A stretch of DNA of 44,169 bases. Origin: a virus. Taxonomy: Duplodnaviria > Caudoviricetes. The number at the start of each line of letters is the position of its first letter. Within the stretch, counting starts at the first letter, position 1. A program made the translations under genes and the position numbers. Positions 1-15,980 of the stretch are shown here, piece after piece. Below the pieces are notes generated by a model, which was given only the letters and a program-made list of their open reading frames with translations, had not been told where the DNA came from and ran no database searches. Location of the stretch: IMG/VR virus record IMGVR_UViG_3300042140_000185, positions 1 through 44,169 of that record; one strand, written 5' to 3'.

Positions 1-214
1 GCCTGTTGATTTCCTTGCTCGCCAACTCCGCAGATTCGCAAGCCGCCTTCCAGTCCGCAGCCTTCTCGGCCTCGCACCCGGCAAGCGCGGTCCGGTACTC
101 GTCTATGGTAGGAGAGCCGCTCACAATAAGCCTCGCGTTAGGGTTGCAGCCGCGAGAACCAGCGGATGCAGGAGACATCGCCTTGCCGTCCTGCGGTGTA
201 GTTTCGTCACTCAT
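1..214 (-). CDS. Hypothetical cassette protein, runs off window (MSDETTPQDGKAMSPASAGS...)
   Basis: ATG at 214 with AGGAG RBS, both inside attC-like site 1; frame open to position 1; not in ORF track. Confidence 0.7.
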   Translation of the reverse strand, partial: MSDETTPQDGKAMSPASAGSRGCNPNARLIVSGSPTIDEYRTALAGCEAEKAADWKAACESAELASKEINR

Positions 215-242
215 GCGATGCTCCTGATCCTGCGTGTTCTCA
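153..242 (+). mobile_element. attC-like recombination site 1
   Basis: CGAGAAC-N5-GAT[G]CAGGAG[A]CATCGC...GCGATGCTCCTGATC-N6-GTTCTCA; imperfect palindrome with two extra bases; 90 bp. Confidence 0.85.
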
Positions 243-446
243 CTGCACCGTTTCGCGGATAGCCTGCGGGCTATCAGTTTCGCGTTTCGCGAAAGGCCGC
301 AACCTCTCAAGCAGGCTGGAGATATGCGGCCCGTCGCGCAAGGCAACGACACCCACAGCGGCAACGTATTCCAGTGCGTCAAACTCGGCTTCGGTGATGT
401 TCATTCCATGTTCCAGAACGCGATCCCGCCGGGATCGCTGTGTCAT
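240..446 (-). CDS. Hypothetical cassette protein (start 446 or 404)
   Basis: 3' part of ORF 240..653; stop TGA lies in the R' box of attC 1. Confidence 0.55.
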   Translation of the reverse strand: MTQRSRRDRVLEHGMNITEAEFDALEYVAAVGVVALRDGPHISSLLERLRPFAKRETDSPQAIRETVQ

Positions 447-464
447 GTTTCGTAGCAAAAAAAC

Positions 465-552
465 TGAGAACCACACGATGCAGCGGACCCGCGATGCCGT
501 CTGCCGGAATTGTAAGTCAGCGGTCGCGGGCCGCTGATCGCTGGCGTTATAC
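465..552 (+). mobile_element. attC-like recombination site 2
   Basis: TGAGAAC-N5-GAT[G]CAGCGG[A]CCCGCGA...TCGCGGGCCGCTGATC-N6-GTTATAC; 88 bp. Confidence 0.85.
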
Positions 553-846
553 CTTGTTGCGGCAGCACCCATCGCAGCCGTGAATGTTTCTGTAGCCTTG
601 TCCAAGCCTCTGCCAGTACGCCGCGTCATCTGGGTCTGGATGCCCGACGCCATGCTCGCAGATTCGCTCCATCTGGCCCTTGTCGGCCCGCCACCGCATC
701 GGCCACTCTCTCATGTGGTGATCCGATGGATTGTGGATGCAGCAGTATTCGCCAGCGCATTTCGTTGCGTCATGCGTCACAAGGTTTGCGGGCGGTTTGG
801 CAGAACCAGCCGATGCAACGGACGGCCCTGCTACGTCATGCGTCAT
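547..846 (-). CDS. Cys/His-rich putative metal-binding phage protein (cassette gene)
   Basis: CCIHNPSDHH...RICEHGVGHPDPD...HGCDGCC; ATG inside attC 3; stop TAA in the R' box of attC 2. Confidence 0.75.
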   Translation of the reverse strand: MTHDVAGPSVASAGSAKPPANLVTHDATKCAGEYCCIHNPSDHHMREWPMRWRADKGQMERICEHGVGHPDPDDAAYWQRLGQGYRNIHGCDGCCRNKV

Positions 847-888
847 GGTGAGTCCTGCGGTGGCCGCCGTTGATCTTCCGTGTTCTGG
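800..888 (+). mobile_element. attC-like recombination site 3
   Basis: GCAGAAC-N5-GAT[G]CAACGG[A]CGGCC...GGCCGCCGTTGATC-N6-GTTCTGG; 89 bp. Confidence 0.85.
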
Positions 889-1267
889 AATCTGGAAAAT
901 GCCCCCGCCCACCCGCCGCCAGGGCGTTGTCGGCCTGCGGTGCGTCTGGGGGCTCGCCTCCACCGCACTCGCTGGCCGGTGACTGCCGCTCTGCGCTGCG
1001 GTTTATCTGTCCGCCGCTGGAGCCGGGTGGTGGCGTTACGCCGCCAGCCGTAGTCCGCGAGGGCACAATCTGGCTGGCGTCATGTTTCATATTGGAAACT
1101 CCAAGTTTTTCGTCGTTTTCCTCATATGATCTGGCTCGCTCGCGGAGCATGGCGTCGGCGGCCTCGTAGGCAAACCGCGACCAGTAGTCCCACGAGCGGT
1201 CCTTGTCGGTCGGCGCGGCCAGCAGCCCAGTCAAAGCCGCAGCGGCGAAGTGGTCGCGGTCTGTCAT
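836..1267 (-). CDS. Conserved phage hypothetical (RDxFAAxAxxGLLA...AYxxADAML type) with low-complexity tail
   Basis: MTDRDHFAAAALTGLLA...AYEAADAML; ATGA overlap with the upstream gene. Confidence 0.65.
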   Translation of the reverse strand: MTDRDHFAAAALTGLLAAPTDKDRSWDYWSRFAYEAADAMLRERARSYEENDEKLGVSNMKHDASQIVPSRTTAGGVTPPPGSSGGQINRSAERQSPASECGGGEPPDAPQADNALAAGGRGHFPDSRTRKINGGHRRTHHDA

Positions 1268-1491
1268 TTCTCGCTCCCTCTCAAGATCGCCCCGCACGGT
1301 TCCAGCAGCGACAGCCTCATGTTGTCGGAGTGCTCGGCGAACGCCATCGTTTGGCGAATCCAATAGTTTCGCTCGGCCCTGAGCCGCTCGATCTCTGTCG
1401 CCGCGTCGTGGCAGTCCCAGTAGTGCTGCTCGTCGTCGGTGCCGATCATGTCAGCGCGGGTCTGACGCAGTCTGGTGGCAATGTCGCTCAC
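1264..1491 (-). CDS. Small phage hypothetical (SDIATRLR...EIERLR type)
   Basis: GTG start, GGAGGAGG RBS, GTGA overlap. Confidence 0.6.
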   Translation of the reverse strand: MSDIATRLRQTRADMIGTDDEQHYWDCHDAATEIERLRAERNYWIRQTMAFAEHSDNMRLSLLEPCGAILRGSEK

Positions 1492-1703
1492 CCCTCCTCC
1501 ACATACCGCGTCGTGAACTTCGCTAGCTCCTTCGAGAACGCCTGAATCGACTCCGACAGCATGAACGTCGCCAGCGCCAGGCCGTCGGCACCCGCCTCCT
1601 GCGCAAGGGCCGCATTCGCTTCGGCCAGGTCGGCGACCGTCCGAAGCGTCGATGTCATCACGAGGAGCCGCCGCAGGATGTCCGCACGCTCGTCTGGCGT
1701 CAT
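1488..1703 (-). CDS. Small helical hypothetical protein
   Basis: MTPDERADILRRL...; 4-nt overlaps at both ends. Confidence 0.55.
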   Translation of the reverse strand: MTPDERADILRRLLVMTSTLRTVADLAEANAALAQEAGADGLALATFMLSESIQAFSKELAKFTTRYVEEG

Positions 1704-2263
1704 GCTTGCTGCCATTTGCCATGGGCGTCCTTCTCGAGGAGTGTCGGCCAGAATCCAGCACGCGAGGCCACCAGCAGCATGTGCGGGTGGAAGACTGCGA
1801 CCGTGCCGCCGTTCTCGTGCAGCACGCTGGCCTTGAGGCCCGAGGCCGCGTAGGCTGCGACGCCGCGGAGCCGGTAGTCCTTTCGCACGAACGCCTTCAG
1901 CGTGTCGTGGTCGCACCATTTCTCCGTCCTCGCCCACCCGACGATCTCGGCCTTGTCGAGCTTCTCGAGCTTCTCGAGCTTCTCGACGATGGCCTCAAGT
2001 TCGTCGGCGATGCGGTCGATCGCGTCGCTCCGTGGCTTGTCTGACGCGACTCGCTCCGGCTGCGACTGCCTCTCTTGCAGAAGGCTCTCAGCCTGCTCTT
2101 TGTTGACGAGCCATCGACCGCTCGTTGAGTGCTGGAAGCCGTCAACATCGCCGTCAGCGATCGCCTGCCGGAGAAGTTTGTACTGCGGCGAGTGCGCCGC
2201 TTTTTTGTCCCTCTGTGGGTAGTCGTAATCCGCGAGACTGACATAACCCGGTATCGTCGTCAC
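1700..2263 (-). CDS. Hypothetical protein, possible excisionase-like N-terminus plus short coiled coil
   Basis: GTG start, GGAGG RBS; LRQAIADGDVDG...GRWLV; LEKLEKLDK encoded by a 9-nt tandem repeat at 1956-1986. Confidence 0.6.
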   Translation of the reverse strand: MTTIPGYVSLADYDYPQRDKKAAHSPQYKLLRQAIADGDVDGFQHSTSGRWLVNKEQAESLLQERQSQPERVASDKPRSDAIDRIADELEAIVEKLEKLEKLDKAEIVGWARTEKWCDHDTLKAFVRKDYRLRGVAAYAASGLKASVLHENGGTVAVFHPHMLLVASRAGFWPTLLEKDAHGKWQQA

Positions 2264-2460
2264 TGCTTCACCTCCCATGTGTAAACCGCTTCCCTGCCGC
2301 CATTTCGATAGCCAGTGACCCGATACAGACCGCCACGCATCGGCCAAAACACCTTGACCTGATCTTGCGTCATCGAGCACCACTGGAGGCCGTCGATCGG
2401 CCCGCCGATGAATATCGGCGTCACGAAGTAGGCTGGTTGTGTGGTCGCGTCGCTACTCAT
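2260..2460 (-). CDS. Small hypothetical protein with GGPxDG motif
   Basis: FIGGPIDG; coupled to neighbours. Confidence 0.6.
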   Translation of the reverse strand: MSSDATTQPAYFVTPIFIGGPIDGLQWCSMTQDQVKVFWPMRGGLYRVTGYRNGGREAVYTWEVKQ

Positions 2461-2560
2461 CGCGCATCATGTACGGAATAAGGCTCGCATAGAAGCAGCC
2501 GCCAACGATCACGAGGAGCGTGGCGATGTTCAGCCAAGCGTGGATCGCGCTGTCGATCAC
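2453..2560 (-). CDS. 35-aa single-pass membrane peptide
   Basis: GTG overlaps csrA stop; GGAGG RBS; hydrophobic WLNIATLLVIVGGCFYASLI. Confidence 0.55.
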   Translation of the reverse strand: MIDSAIHAWLNIATLLVIVGGCFYASLIPYMMRDE

Positions 2561-2721
2561 TTCGCCACCTCCTTGGGCTGAAGCTCCGTCCTGACGATCG
2601 GCACGTCCGGCGGCGCCTTGATGGCAAGCCGGACGTTTCCGTCGATGATCCGCGTGACCATGACCTCGATGTCTTGGCCGATGCGGATTTTTTCGCCACG
2701 GCGGCGTGTGAGGACGAGCAT
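2557..2721 (-). CDS. csrA: Carbon storage regulator CsrA/RsmA (54 aa)
   Basis: Hand translation MLVLTRRRGEKIRIGQDIEVMVTRIIDGNVRLAIKAPPDVPIVRTELQPKEVAK; AAGGAG RBS; below ORF-track cutoff. Confidence 0.95.
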   Translation of the reverse strand: MLVLTRRRGEKIRIGQDIEVMVTRIIDGNVRLAIKAPPDVPIVRTELQPKEVAK

Positions 2722-2736
2722 GGATGCTGACTCCTT

Positions 2737-2898
2737 TCAGCCTTGGTAATACCGCTTCCTCAGATGCTTCTCTTCGGCAGTCCACTGCCGCTGGAGCTTC
2801 TTGCACTCGATGCGAATCGTGATCGGCGTCGGGTCCGGCGCCCGCTTCGCAAGCCCGCCGCGCTGGCCGAGGTTTTCTTTGAGGCTCATGGAATCCAT
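2737..2898 (-). CDS. Small basic hypothetical protein (start 2898 or 2889)
   Basis: Fills the gap in a - strand operon. Confidence 0.5.
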   Translation of the reverse strand: MDSMSLKENLGQRGGLAKRAPDPTPITIRIECKKLQRQWTAEEKHLRKRYYQG

Positions 2899-2920
2899 TC
2901 CAGTTGTGGTGTCGCGTAGC

Positions 2921-3409
2921 CTAGCCGCCAGTCTGTTTCGACGCAAGCCAAGATTTCGCGGCTTCGCGGACGGCCTCTAGCCCGCATTTATCCGCGGCCC
3001 AGCGGATGTAGTCGATCCTGCCAGCCTCGGCGACCTCGTCGAGCGTCATCCCGACGAACGTATCGCGAACCCCTTGCGGGAGCCGAAAGACATCTTCCTC
3101 CACGACTACTGGCTCGTCTTCCTGCTTGACAGCATCGACCCACTGCCCTGTCCCGCAAAAACAGCACTCGATGTACCAGCGGCCCCTGTCCTCCGACCAG
3201 ATGTCGTGGCATTCGGCCTGGCATCGCTCGTCAAGGCACTTGTAGGTGTGGTCGATCGTCCCAAGGGCTTTCGGAACCTGCGTTGACGACGCCCTCGGGC
3301 GGTGCGTGAAAACTGGCTCATCGACGACAGCCTTGGTGACAAAGCGGCGGCTTTTGCCCTTCGCTCTCCGCGGGTCGTCGGTCGGCGAGATGTCGAAAAG
3401 AAGGCTCAT
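2921..3409 (-). CDS. Hypothetical protein with Zn-ribbon-like Cys pairs and DUF3820-like C-terminus
   Basis: CLDERC...CCFC; FVGMTLDEV...DYIRWAA. Confidence 0.6.
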   Translation of the reverse strand: MSLLFDISPTDDPRRAKGKSRRFVTKAVVDEPVFTHRPRASSTQVPKALGTIDHTYKCLDERCQAECHDIWSEDRGRWYIECCFCGTGQWVDAVKQEDEPVVVEEDVFRLPQGVRDTFVGMTLDEVAEAGRIDYIRWAADKCGLEAVREAAKSWLASKQTGG

Positions 3410-5055
3410 AGCGGCAGCCTCATCTTGTAGTCGGCGCCTTGCTCGGTGGCGATGATCAACTTCCGGCGAGCCCGCGTGACTCCGACGTACTCAATCCGCC
3501 GCTCCTCGTCGTGCTGGCCCGCGTCGATCCCCTGGGCCTCGTGGATGCGGCGGCTGATCGTCGTGGAAAGCACGACCGTGTCTGCCTCCATCCCCTTGGC
3601 AGCATGGATCGTTCCGACCCTAATAGCGGGTCGTGACGCCAATTCTGGGCCGTACTTCTCCGCGGCCCGACGCCACCTGGCTGCCCCGTGGAAAAGTTCG
3701 CCCCAAGCCCCTTTTCGCAGCTTGTCGGCGAACTCTGGCTTCATCCCTGTGTCCTCAAGGTCGGCAGGGAATATGACCTCCCACCGCTGGAGCGTATCCT
3801 CTCGGCCCCATGCTGCCTTCGTTCCCTTGACCATGTTTCCTGTCGCCGGCAGCAAATCCACCGCAGCCGCGAAATCGTCGGAAGCTGCTGGATTGCCGTG
3901 CTCGATGTCCCACAGGGCATTTGCCGCCCGCAGGAACTTCGTGTTGTCCTTGGCCTTGAGTTTTGCGAACGGCAGCCGCTTCTTCGCCAGCACCGCCTCC
4001 CATAACTCCGCTGTGTAGTTGCAGCGGGCGACTATGAGCGTCTGGTCGGTGGCCGACAAGCCGGCTGCGACTGTCTCGGCGTACCCTCCGCGAATGACCT
4101 CGCCAGAATGGTCGGCTGGCGCGATCCCCCTGTCCCAGTAGCCCTCTCGCATCCTCTTCAGGCAGGCTTCGCCAAGATCAAGCACCGGAGCCGGGCATCG
4201 CCAGGTTTTCGGCATGATCCGCTGCTTGTCGGCCTTCCAGGACATGAATAGGCGGGCATCGGAACCGCCGAAGCCAAAAATGCTTTGCATGGGGTCGCCG
4301 GCCAGGTACACCCATTTCACGTTTTCGCCGCTCGCCAGCCGCCGGCAGCACACATCGACCAGCGGCGAGGCGTCCTGCTGCTCGTCCATGACCCATGCCC
4401 GCACGTTTGGCGGCAACTCGCCCTCCGGGTCGGTTTCCTCGAACCCCTCCGGCATGAACCGAATTCCTCCGAACCGTGCCAAGAGGTCCGTGAAGTCGCA
4501 GCGGCACTCAAGCCGCTTCGCGGCCTCGTACTTCTCAATGTACTGCTTGCAAGCCGCGTAGGATGGCACAGAATCGCCCAGGCGGGCCGCTCGCAATATG
4601 GTGGCCTCCAATGGCTCCATTCTTGATCTGGCCTGCTCCCAGGCGTTCAGGGCCGCCGCGGCGGCCTTCTCGCCAGTAAAACGCGCGTACCCGCTGTCTT
4701 CGTCAATGATCGTCCTGACGTTGACGCCGAGGACTTTCGCGATCCACTCGGCGGAAGCCTTGCTGTCGTCAAGCAGGTCGCCCTTTCTGACGCCCAACTG
4801 CCGGTAGGCAATCGAGTGGACGGTCTTGAACCAACCATCTTTCGCCAGCACGTCCGGCGGCACGTTCCAGTTGCCGCTGGCCCGATCGACGGCCTCGGCA
4901 CGAGCGGCGCGGGTGAAACTCGTGAAGCCAATCGAAAACGGGCTCCCGCCTAGCTGTTTTTTTGCGGTATCAATCACGCCCATCAATTCCGTCGTCTTCC
5001 CAGTGCCGGCACCGCCGACCAACCGTGCTATCTGTGCTGCCATTGTTTTGACCAT
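3406..5055 (-). CDS. UvrD/Rep-like SF1 helicase (start 5055 or 5043)
   Basis: GGAGTGKT, DEQQD, GDPMQSIFGF, TIHAAKGMEAD, YVGVTRAR. Confidence 0.92.
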   Translation of the reverse strand: MVKTMAAQIARLVGGAGTGKTTELMGVIDTAKKQLGGSPFSIGFTSFTRAARAEAVDRASGNWNVPPDVLAKDGWFKTVHSIAYRQLGVRKGDLLDDSKASAEWIAKVLGVNVRTIIDEDSGYARFTGEKAAAAALNAWEQARSRMEPLEATILRAARLGDSVPSYAACKQYIEKYEAAKRLECRCDFTDLLARFGGIRFMPEGFEETDPEGELPPNVRAWVMDEQQDASPLVDVCCRRLASGENVKWVYLAGDPMQSIFGFGGSDARLFMSWKADKQRIMPKTWRCPAPVLDLGEACLKRMREGYWDRGIAPADHSGEVIRGGYAETVAAGLSATDQTLIVARCNYTAELWEAVLAKKRLPFAKLKAKDNTKFLRAANALWDIEHGNPAASDDFAAAVDLLPATGNMVKGTKAAWGREDTLQRWEVIFPADLEDTGMKPEFADKLRKGAWGELFHGAARWRRAAEKYGPELASRPAIRVGTIHAAKGMEADTVVLSTTISRRIHEAQGIDAGQHDEERRIEYVGVTRARRKLIIATEQGADYKMRLPL

Positions 5056-11466: not shown

Positions 11467-11673
11467 ATGCAAAGGAAGCACGTCGTAATCATTGATTGGC
11501 AGGACGGCGATGTCGAGGACGCCGACGAGATTGCGGTTTTCGCAGACTCTCCGGCGGCGGCCATCGAGAAGGCGCGACGAAAATGGCGACTGACCATCGG
11601 TGCCGACTACCCGCACTGCAAAATTGTGGAGTCAAACATCTTGACCCACAAGATGGCTGCCCAATTTGCCTGA
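11467..11673 (+). CDS. Small hypothetical protein upstream of the integrase
   Basis: GGAGGAG RBS before ATG 11467. Confidence 0.6.
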   Translation: MQRKHVVIIDWQDGDVEDADEIAVFADSPAAAIEKARRKWRLTIGADYPHCKIVESNILTHKMAAQFA

Positions 11674-11719
11674 CCCCCATGTGGGTGGCAGTGTCCCTCC
11701 ACGCCACGGAGGGGCACCA

Positions 11720-12568
11720 ATGAAACTTCTAGAGATCGTCGAGACGCTGTACGCCCCGCTCCGCGGGATCAGCGAGCGCACGGTCGAGATTTACGCCGGG
11801 GCGCTGCGGCGGTTCGCCGAGTTTCTGAAGCATGAGCCGACGACGACCGACCTAGACGAGATCGTCGTGGCGAGGTTCCTGGCGTGGCGCGTCCGCGAGT
11901 CGTCGCCTGGGTCGGCCGCAAAAGACCGCGCCTGCCTGCGGGCGCTCTGGGAATTCGCCGCGAAACGCCGGCTAACCGACCGCTGGCCTGAGATTCGGAC
12001 GATCTGCGTGCCCGAGCGGGTGCCGAGGGCCTGGCTACTCGACGAGTTCCAGCGGCTGCTCGACGCCTGCGATGGCGAGCACGGCGAAGTCGTCGGCGTG
12101 CCGGCGAGGCTCTGGTTCAGGGCGATCCTACTGACCGCGTACTGGACCGGCGAACGCATCGGCAGCCTGCTATCCATCACCTGGGACGATGTGACCGAGG
12201 AGGCGATCCTATTCCCGGCCGAGGGCCGCAAGGGCCGCCGCGAGGACATCTACCGCCCGATTCCGCCGGAGTGCTACGCCGCGATCCAGGCGATCCGCAC
12301 GAACCGCAAGATCGTGTTCGACTGGGACCGCTGCTACACGAGCATCTGGGGCCGCCTGGGCAAAGTCTGCGAGCGGGCAGGGCTGCCGAACGACCGCGTG
12401 AGCAAATTCCACAGGGTCCGCAAAACGGCCGCGAGCTATTTCGAGGCCGGCGGCGGGGACGCCCAGGCTCTGATGGCCCACAAAAATCGCGGCACGACCA
12501 GGCGATACCTTGATCCGAGGATCGTGCGGACGAAGGCCGCGCCGGATATTTTGCCGCGGGTGGGTTAG
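11720..12568 (+). CDS. int: Tyrosine recombinase/integrase
   Basis: TGERIGSL (R), RKG (K), FHRVRK (HxxR), LMAH, TRRY (Y); SAM-like N-terminus. Confidence 0.92.
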   Translation: MKLLEIVETLYAPLRGISERTVEIYAGALRRFAEFLKHEPTTTDLDEIVVARFLAWRVRESSPGSAAKDRACLRALWEFAAKRRLTDRWPEIRTICVPERVPRAWLLDEFQRLLDACDGEHGEVVGVPARLWFRAILLTAYWTGERIGSLLSITWDDVTEEAILFPAEGRKGRREDIYRPIPPECYAAIQAIRTNRKIVFDWDRCYTSIWGRLGKVCERAGLPNDRVSKFHRVRKTAASYFEAGGGDAQALMAHKNRGTTRRYLDPRIVRTKAAPDILPRVG

Positions 12569-14934: not shown

Positions 14935-15980
14935 TTCAGAAAGATGGGGAGCACTTTGGTGACGCGGCCGTGGTCGTGGTCGATGATGACAAGGCTCTGA
15001 GACGGCGGCTGATACTCAGCCTTGATGCGGTCGGCAAAGGCGTTATGGCCGATGAGGCAGCCGTTCGCGACGAATCTGTACGGCAGCCAACTGAAGCAGT
15101 GCCAGTGCCCGAAGATGTCCAGGTCTGCGCGTTGGGCCTGGTTCCAGTTCGCGATGGCTTTGTTGGCCGGGATCGTCAGGCCGCCGACGCCGCCGCCGAA
15201 TCGGATGGCGTGGCCGTGGTGGGCGCGGACGATGAAGCCGTCCAGGTTGATGTTGTTGAGGTAGCCCTCGCCGATCCGCCACTCGACGTGCCGGCGTCGC
15301 TCCTGGGCCGCCATCGTGAGGTACAGGTGATGCTCAAAAGAGTGGTCGTTCTCAGTCGCCATCCTGGGGTGCTTTGTCGAGCGGCCGTGGTTCCCGCTGG
15401 CCGTCGCGACCAGCACAGGCGCGATCTCCTGCATGGCGTCGATGACACCGCCAAGACGCTCTCCTGCCCACCTCGTCGCCGCGAGCGGCGCCAGTTGCGT
15501 TACCTCGACGAGGTCGTCGTGGATATGCCCAGTAATAAAGTCGCCGAGCGCGGCCACGACGATCCGGCGGATGCCGGTGAGGTGCTTTTCGTGCTCGATT
15601 AGCATCGAGGCTCGCTGGACAAGCTGCTCAATGCGGCGGTCGGCGATCTCCAGCGTGAAGTGATTCAGGTTTCGGCACGTCTCCGGCCGCACTTCCTCCT
15701 CGACGTGCCAATCGGAGAGCACAAGGACGGCCGTGGCTTCAGGCCGGCTGCCACGCTGCCGCTTCGTGACGATCTTCTTCGAGCCGACGCCGGCCAGGGC
15801 CTTGAGGCTGTTCGCTGCCTCCTTCTCGGCCTCCAGCCGGTGCAGCGCCGCCTCGTATTTCTTGCGAAGCGAGGACAGTTCGCTCCGCAACTTCGCCGCC
15901 TCGGCGTCGCGGGCGATCTCTAGCTGTCGCTCGACCGCAGCCACCGCATGATCGTTGTTTCGCTTTTTGGCGCGGGCCAT
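14931..15980 (-). CDS. Calcineurin-like metallophosphoesterase with N-terminal coiled coil
   Basis: SDWH, GDFI, GNHG, HHGH, GHWH. Confidence 0.88.
   Translation of the reverse strand: MARAKKRNNDHAVAAVERQLEIARDAEAAKLRSELSSLRKKYEAALHRLEAEKEAANSLKALAGVGSKKIVTKRQRGSRPEATAVLVLSDWHVEEEVRPETCRNLNHFTLEIADRRIEQLVQRASMLIEHEKHLTGIRRIVVAALGDFITGHIHDDLVEVTQLAPLAATRWAGERLGGVIDAMQEIAPVLVATASGNHGRSTKHPRMATENDHSFEHHLYLTMAAQERRRHVEWRIGEGYLNNINLDGFIVRAHHGHAIRFGGGVGGLTIPANKAIANWNQAQRADLDIFGHWHCFSWLPYRFVANGCLIGHNAFADRIKAEYQPPSQSLVIIDHDHGRVTKVLPIFLK

Follow-up and report, generated by a model that had tools for sequence, protein, structure and literature searches.

An integron-type attC array in a tailed phage carries its genes in reverse, with predicted translation starts inside the recombination sites

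Integrons have been seen as bacterial devices and, more recently, as reservoirs of genes against phages. Bacterial arrays include single cassettes in antisense orientation that have promoters of their own. In the parts of the published accounts on which we draw here, clusters of attC sites in phages are already described: 17 were reported among 10,705 GenBank phages and read as host cassettes in transit, and some of their sites recombine with IntI1 (Qi et al. 2023, PMC9892861). In class 1 integrons, recombination sites affect translation and can hold stops or short ORFs that couple cassettes (PMC8876359), and a group with a minimum of two attC sites and no neighbouring intI is defined as a CALIN (10.1101/030866); PMC8352920 and PMC5371416 are cited as further sources. 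Our literature search, judged mostly from listings and with most subscription journals outside its coverage, found no paper describing phage cassettes in reverse orientation whose genes start inside attC.

The window analysed here, the whole stretch of 44,169 nucleotides of IMG/VR record IMGVR_UViG_3300042140_000185, is a tailed-phage record with annotated terminase, portal, major head, tape measure, helicases, primase and a CsrA-like gene. The annotated genes lie nearly all on the - strand, and an attC array sits at the left, where the cut window end falls among small genes. With several attC sites and no intI beside them, the window fits the CALIN definition; it lacks the intI in cis of a complete integron, and while the window is a fragment, intI is likewise missing from all 15 near-complete array-bearing records (0/15). 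We hold with good, though not full, confidence that such arrays represent a reversed, integrase-less integron platform of temperate planctomycete phages, which host IntI would serve, which would be transcribed from the phage operon towards attI, and in which attC loops would provide translation starts and R' boxes the stops.

Three hairpins on the + strand have attC anatomy. attC1 (153-242) comprises R'' (153-159), L'' (165-172), L' (223-229) and R' (236-242), with extra bases G168 and A175 and a crossover point between G236 and T237 (G|T). attC2 (465-552), which belongs to a leaderless type, has R'' at 465-471, extra bases G480 and A487, L' at 533-539 and R' at 546-552, and its R'' exactly complements the R' (236-242) at the opening of its own cassette. 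attC3 (800-888), the last of the array, has R'' at 800-806, extra bases G815 and A822, L' at 869-875 and R' at 882-888. A structural scan of both strands of the whole window (AAC, 5 nt, L'' ... L', 6 nt, GTT) recovered all three sites on + with 7/7 L-box pairs each (AAC 157/GTT 236, AAC 469/GTT 546, AAC 804/GTT 882) and no attC site on the - strand. A weak fourth match on + (15089-15149, 61 nt, 6/7 L-box pairs), inside an exonuclease gene, was set aside as probably due to chance. Folded as the - strand, attC1, attC2 and attC3 gave z-scores of -4.5, -4.2 and -2.3, reached by 0, 0 and 3 of 200 shuffles, attC3 being the weakest folder; an Rfam search of the window gave no match. The preliminary description had taken + as the top strand from extra bases in the left arm, and all three sites agree, each having two such bases there, with bottom-strand identities C and T. 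They therefore lie opposite the AAC arm on the - strand, the recombining bottom strand, which carries its extra bases on the arm opposite AAC (Nivina 2016, PMC5027507, as far as that account is used here). The three hairpins are thus confirmed as real attC sites with + as the top strand, and their recombination is predicted.

These sites belong to a family and are no chance pattern. One exact pattern occurs in at least 150 viral stretches (about 290 estimated), many of them in arrays, and AAC, which is absent from the pattern, stands at the right offset in 160 of 168 distinct matches. The structure of the inner stem is kept, five of its six variable positions pairing in 156 to 160 of 160 sites and using two to four types of pair; at one L-box position, pairing is seen in 139/160 (18 more form a bottom-strand G-T), and the outermost position tested pairs in 75. 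In the genome collection, structurally valid matches fall mainly in Planctomycetota assemblies, and several adjoin a true intI; pattern matches outside Planctomycetota are mostly chance, and only structurally passing sites were used.

If the sites bound mobile units, each unit should run from G|TT to G|TT and its R'' should match the R' that opens it. Among 86 viral cases, the better partner of R'' is the R' at the opening of its own cassette in 55 and the adjacent R' of the array in 6, with 25 ties, and the mean pairing was reached by none of 2000 shuffles, the cassettes not being independent. In the window, the match is 4/4 in cassette B and 2/4 in cassette C. Sharing of neighbours, compared over 192 sites, is confined to the left cassette in 43 pairs and to the right in 20, and extends to both in 1; identity between related arrays switches at GTT, and in four records one identical stretch of cassette end and hairpin leads into four different cassettes. 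Sequence comparison thus establishes the anatomy, polarity, GTT borders and distribution of the sites, and the array is a real feature that appears to work like an integron cassette array. Some sites elsewhere are damaged (L316, L289, L041 and L039), with the leader kept and the GTT of R' mutated or with the hairpin partly deleted; such damage would fix a cassette in place.

As first described, the cassette genes in the window all lie on the - strand, two of them start inside their own attC (ATG 214 and ATG 846), and the stops TGA 242-240 and TAA 549-547 fall in the neighbouring R' box; all of these are borne out as sequence features. The gene of cassette A (1-214, -), truncated by the window end, has AGGAG at 225-221, ATG 214 and a 20-residue attC-coded leader, MSDETTPQDGKAMSPASAGS. 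The AGGAG had been equated with the L' arm itself, which is right for its first three bases, in the L' box (223-229), and wrong for the rest, in the inner stem. Because this gene leaves the window, its stop is seen only in a record that is 99% identical over 1-269 (G075), where the gene is complete and ends in the next R' box. Its protein has no family in PHROG or Pfam.

Cassette B (237-546, 310 nt) runs from the TT of the attC1 R' to the G of the attC2 R', and its four R''/R' matches belong to the circular form, against 1/4 in the array. Its gene (240-404, -) ends at TGA 242-240 and likely starts at ATG 404 (54 aa); the alternative ATG 446 would give 68 aa and is less likely because a 41-nt insertion in a relative (L040; 92% identity over 258-436) shifts it out of frame. 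In that other phage, a longer gene without attC has a 5' part that corresponds to this gene. The signal of purifying selection on the cassette B gene is weak (mismatches by codon position 5/3/5). An 8-bp inverted repeat lies near 418-437, in the same region as the 41-nt indel. In attC2, the leader frame offers no ATG on the bottom strand, and the gene starts outside the site; a 41-codon frame (443-568, -) crosses attC2 in the leader frame with its end overlapping ATG 446, without sign of use.

Cassette C (547-882, 336 nt) has whole-cassette relatives with other neighbours (G076, 86%; G068, 76%), and its own R''/R' match has decayed. Its gene (547-846, -) encodes a Cys/His-rich protein of 99 aa with a 15-residue attC-coded leader, MTHDVAGPSVASAGS; its ribosome motif, AGGA 856-853, lies in the terminal loop region outside the L' arm, and the cassette's first three bases form the gene's stop, TAA. 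Searches of PHROG, Pfam and NCBIfam gave no family for this protein, as for the three cargo proteins taken together. Upstream, a phage ORF (836-1267, -) whose first part matches phrog_2201 enters attC3 in frame and ends 11 nt beyond the start of the cassette C gene, and translational coupling of the two is possible.

The usual cassette has a top-strand ORF ahead of its attC, an arrangement absent from the window and from 83 of 87 viral cassettes. By a codon score trained on this phage, 87 distinct viral cassettes code on the bottom strand in 83 cases and on the top in 3, with 1 tie, whereas the top strand is favoured in 15 of 23 genome-derived cassettes, four of the other eight coming from one phage-like contig (L208). 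Consistent with this, the longest bottom ORFs of viral cassettes up to 800 nt match PHROG families in 16/72 cases (11 of the 16 being one family), against 0/70 for top ORFs, while in bacterial cassettes, L208 left out, Pfam matches fall on 8/19 top and 0/18 bottom ORFs; related cassettes recur, so that all these counts are of non-independent units. Since viral cassettes code on the bottom strand and bacterial ones on the top, polarity is reversed in phages only. For the cassette C protein, which has 1272 relatives, mismatches concentrate at third codon positions (6/4/23 against L289, and 16/11/38 and 14/9/35), and it is therefore the - strand ORF that is conserved, not a + strand ORF as the reversed reading had to fear; with units bounded at GTT, the view of reversed cassettes holding their own start and stop is upheld. 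Viral cargo (for example in L007, L012, L052 and L047) is dominated by the small family phrog_924 and also includes DNA methyltransferases and HNH nucleases. Many cassette proteins end in a common LTDEEREAI-like helix right before the R' stop, which suggests that gene halves may be shuffled as well.

The phage sites also differ from the bacterial ones in what their loops encode. A ribosome motif and ATG in the ASAGS frame, open for at least 90 nt into the body, were found at 129/193 viral sites (L208 included) and at 0/53 bacterial sites, and the same test in the other frames gave 0 and 13. In 73/87 viral and 2/19 bacterial cassettes, a bottom ORF terminates no more than 12 nt from where the cassette starts. 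The ASAGS residues are read from the reverse complement of L'', spacer and R'', which are constrained, and the part coded by the loop varies widely. The attC-free relatives of the cassette C gene (L292-L303) have no leader and their own start, and 2 of its best 120 protein relatives carry a leader by motif test. The proposal that ASAGS leaders could mark such arrays at the protein level stands for specificity at N-termini and falls for sensitivity, since leaders are diverse and 64/193 viral sites lack one by this test. Among 118 SPASAGS-coding matches scored in viral contigs, attC is present at 5/6 that are N-terminal with a ribosome motif and at 0/112 others; loci found by the window's leader peptide have the hairpin in 21/23. 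The leader peptide is probably a by-product without a function of its own.

Expression by read-through of the phage leftward operon, as originally suggested, is plausible. Neither for the leftward operon nor for a Pc reading the top strand do positions 1-3500 offer a promoter-like site of the sigma-70 types scanned, and they hold no terminator-like site on the - strand; the surroundings of attI fall beyond the window. Ten RNA runs share 5-9% of words with the window, and the four examined consist of contigs without strand, with coverage mostly on the repeated hairpins, and they therefore give no strand, start or expression. In the modelled mRNA fold, the ribosome motif of ATG 214 has a probability of being unpaired of 0.00, rising to 0.27 with 15 nt past the upstream stop held open, and that of ATG 846 is partly free (0.57) and becomes less so with 15 nt held open. 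A general model of melting by the upstream ribosome was dropped, because the accessibility of the two starts changes in opposite directions. The same leftward run includes, upstream, a CsrA-like translational regulator (2557-2721, -). GGA motifs are bound by CsrA and are contained in the attC ribosome sites. Among bacterial sites of this attC family, the loops of several (L206, L215, L255 and L274) hold TGTGGATAA, which resembles a DnaA box and is absent from the leaderless phage sites inspected.

For the enzyme and the host we infer a planctomycete, from the attC family and the CsrA-like gene, whose IntI likely shuffles the cassettes; IntI scoring above the family cut-off is present in 15/24 bacterial genomes with this attC family and in 0/50 array-bearing viral records, chosen mostly for length. 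The window does encode a tyrosine recombinase (11666-12568, +), 10.8 kb from the array, which was rejected as an integron integrase (TIGR02249, 13.8 bits against a cut-off of 265, without the IntI insertion); the two blocks (about 45 residues) that four host IntI have as insertions are missing from it. It is carried by 8/8 near-complete relatives, picked by terminase or recombinase, of which 1/8 has attC sites, and it is probably the lysogeny integrase, to judge from these comparisons, with the array as an accessory platform. Among array-bearing phages, 29/50, and 12/15 of the near-complete ones, carry a tyrosine recombinase, mostly related to that of the window, and two of the three cases mapped have a small array no more than about 0.2 kb downstream of it. 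In L603 (G038) and L604 (G045), the array directly follows the recombinase gene on the same strand, so that these cassettes may be expressed in lysogens.

The left borders of phage arrays share an attI-like motif, consisting of two TTAT-containing repeats, CCGTAGAAAC, four bases and GTT, which is found ahead of the first cassette in host integrons L285 and L286 as well; phage cases are L327 (near 7054) and L332 (near 3355). The pattern is loose and gives many chance matches, with attC following only 12 of 74 matches that have room for it, and of 121 matches in a viral scan, 13 have attC of the same polarity downstream and 0 upstream. At these 13 loci, R''/R' complementarity is perfect in 12 and coding is on the bottom strand in 12. 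The motif heads the array in G075 and at 12 other loci; the window itself holds no attI-like site, its left end being cut before that point. A second host attI-like type, ending in AGAA(A/T)TACAA-GTT, occurs in L283 and L284. This motif, the connection with host integrons and the exchange point at R'' treated below are absent from the preliminary description. In the chromosomal integron L283 (genome G015), the first cassette after the entry junction is phage-type, with a bottom-strand phrog_924 gene that stops in R', which suggests traffic between phage and host arrays. This reversed first cassette ends in an attC of about 55 nt, and the next cassette has a leaderless phage-type attC (L283:461-830 and 113-194).

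Taken together, these features can be ordered into a possible history. A temperate phage would have acquired attI and attC from a host integron, set against the direction of its own operon. Host IntI would excise and insert cassettes in trans by bottom-strand crossover at G|TT, new cassettes entering at attI, the far end of the transcript. Because transcription would reach each hairpin ahead of its gene, the free hairpin loop would have evolved an ATG in a fixed frame together with a ribosome site; translation of the constrained left arm would yield an xxASAGS leader, and the R' box would serve as the stop of the previous gene; with starts in loops and stops in R', genes would pack tightly in any order. 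Less often, a hairpin core would be swapped between gene bodies at the AAC of R'', the place at which a top-strand crossover would fall, and this would change the leader yet keep the frame.

A second exchange point at R'' is suggested by near-identical hairpin cores on unrelated bodies, of which there are 133 pairs among 233 sites, with identity immediately left of AAC at random level. L089 has exactly the attC1 core, and 13 viral sites match this core at 90% or more, 12 of these sites having it on unrelated bodies; the attC3 core has 25 viral sites at least 90% alike, all with unrelated bodies. Conversely, 16/40 same-body pairs, in 12/27 families, have unrelated cores, R'' staying with the body; first mismatches are spread about as for random cores (8/12 families by +7), and a few of them fall deep in the left arm. 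The swap is seen in 2/4 bacterial families, and it is therefore not phage-specific. A top-strand crossover would cut at the AAC of R'', where the cores exchange (PMC5027507, in the part used here), and exchange there would preserve both reading frame and R''/R' match, although homologous recombination in the conserved left arm may produce it as well. For cassette B, identity to the attC-free L040 gene (L040:453-702; window 237-258 and 425-466) ends at 466, inside R'', and the 8 nt found at that point in L040 recur directly after the R' that opens the cassette. In an attC-free donor search with 108 cassette bodies, 10 rows were obtained, mostly missed or damaged sites, and the 8-nt echo appeared only in cassette B; loss instead of gain of attC could also explain this pair, as L039 resembles a deletion product. 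A bolder reading, which we put forward tentatively and regard as rather less probable than its negation, is of a mirror-image integron without an integrase, run on host IntI, in which phages make cassettes from their own genes and both AAC triplets are crossover points, so that gene bodies and hairpin cores would be separate mobile modules. If so, the core would be an exchangeable translation-start unit whose joining to phage DNA at R'' yields a new cassette, cassette B would be a recent product of such joining, and phages would supply cassettes to chromosomal integrons, making cassette genesis observable.

Other explanations of the array have to be weighed against service by host IntI. The least improbable, though still unlikely, is that attC-derived repeats now act as homology blocks with translation signals and are shuffled by homologous recombination, for which the PeSL cassettes of T4-type phages are a precedent (PMC2839356, as outlined there). 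The left arm does contain a conserved block of about 14 nt, and in 4/12 families some same-body pairs diverge only at +12 to +20. Exchange at GTT is nevertheless sharp, with the variable spacer ahead of it travelling with the left cassette; chimeric hairpins are rare, because inner stems stay paired; and further points against it are arrays that begin at an attI-like site whose junction fits the R'' of the first cassette, and a phage-type cassette at a chromosomal attI. Slightly less probable still is a phage-encoded integron in which the small tyrosine recombinase (11666-12568 and its relatives), an enzyme without the IntI insertion, shuffles the cassettes. Close recombinase relatives (E < 1e-39) occur in 25/32 array-bearing records, mostly chosen for a recombinase match, and in 9/15 near-complete ones, and arrays lie just downstream on the same strand in G038 and G045. 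Yet the protein lacks the two IntI blocks (about 45 residues), behaves as a core gene (present in all eight near-complete relatives, one of which has attC), has no relative in two complete array-bearing records, and usually lies kilobases from the array, as in the window, or, where near, on the side farther from attI; both the sites and the attI-like motif agree with those found next to intI in hosts.

Two further explanations appear very improbable. Pieces of chromosomal integrons captured by phages and phage-borne attC clusters are published (PMC9892861, in the part drawn on here), and the array could be a passive fragment of a host cassette array with incidental bottom-strand ORFs; this is largely refuted by cargo that is phage-type (PHROG families and the attC-free phage relatives L292-L303 and L040), by purifying selection on the bottom-strand cargo, and by loop signals missing from bacterial sites. 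Equally improbable, the polarity could be misread, the sites recombining mainly on the other strand and the cassettes being ordinary, as sites with only two extra bases are less strand-selective (PMC5027507, within the part cited) and an exchange point at R'' exists. But in bacteria, sites of this family that are asymmetric in their arms in the same way accompany top-strand genes next to intI, and GTT exchange, with both neighbours kept in 1/64 related pairs, is far commoner than the core swap, with the core kept in 19/40 same-body pairs. Service by host IntI thus stays our preferred reading.

Compared with the systems described so far, phages appear to have reversed integron sites for the shuffling of accessory genes of their own, with one sequence acting as recombination site, coding sequence and translation start. 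For annotation, this means that common N-terminal leaders of this kind are recombination sites and not protein domains, and the attC-free phage relatives, together with the R'' exchange point, offer concrete pairs of donor and product with which to approach the question of cassette origin. Like the CALINs of phages (PMC9892861), the locus has several attC sites in a phage genome and no intI, but that account, as far as it is used here, does not mention bottom-strand genes, starts inside attC, phage-type shuffled cargo or planctomycete sites. PeSL cassettes (PMC2839356, as outlined there) resemble it in being repeated hairpins that carry expression signals and stand between small variable phage genes, and in showing modular shuffling and small circles; they are promoter-terminator repeats, whereas the phage array has attC boxes, extra bases and a fixed crossover, and the strong promoter and terminator stem-loop expected in each PeSL repeat were not found, the promoter scan covering sigma-70 types only. 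The translation signals of class 1 integrons (ORF-11 at attI1 and short ORFs within attC; PMC8876359, in the part consulted) are top-strand helpers, while here it is attC's bottom strand that supplies the predicted start and N-terminus of the cargo protein itself. Closest are the chromosomal integrons of Planctomycetota, with intI co-oriented with the array, attI and attC sites of 79-84 nt, which share the attC family, the attI-like motif and the circular-cassette signature. Their cassettes are top-strand, and their loops lack a ribosome site and ATG; the phage platform, in contrast, lacks intI, and reading of it proceeds from the opposite side.
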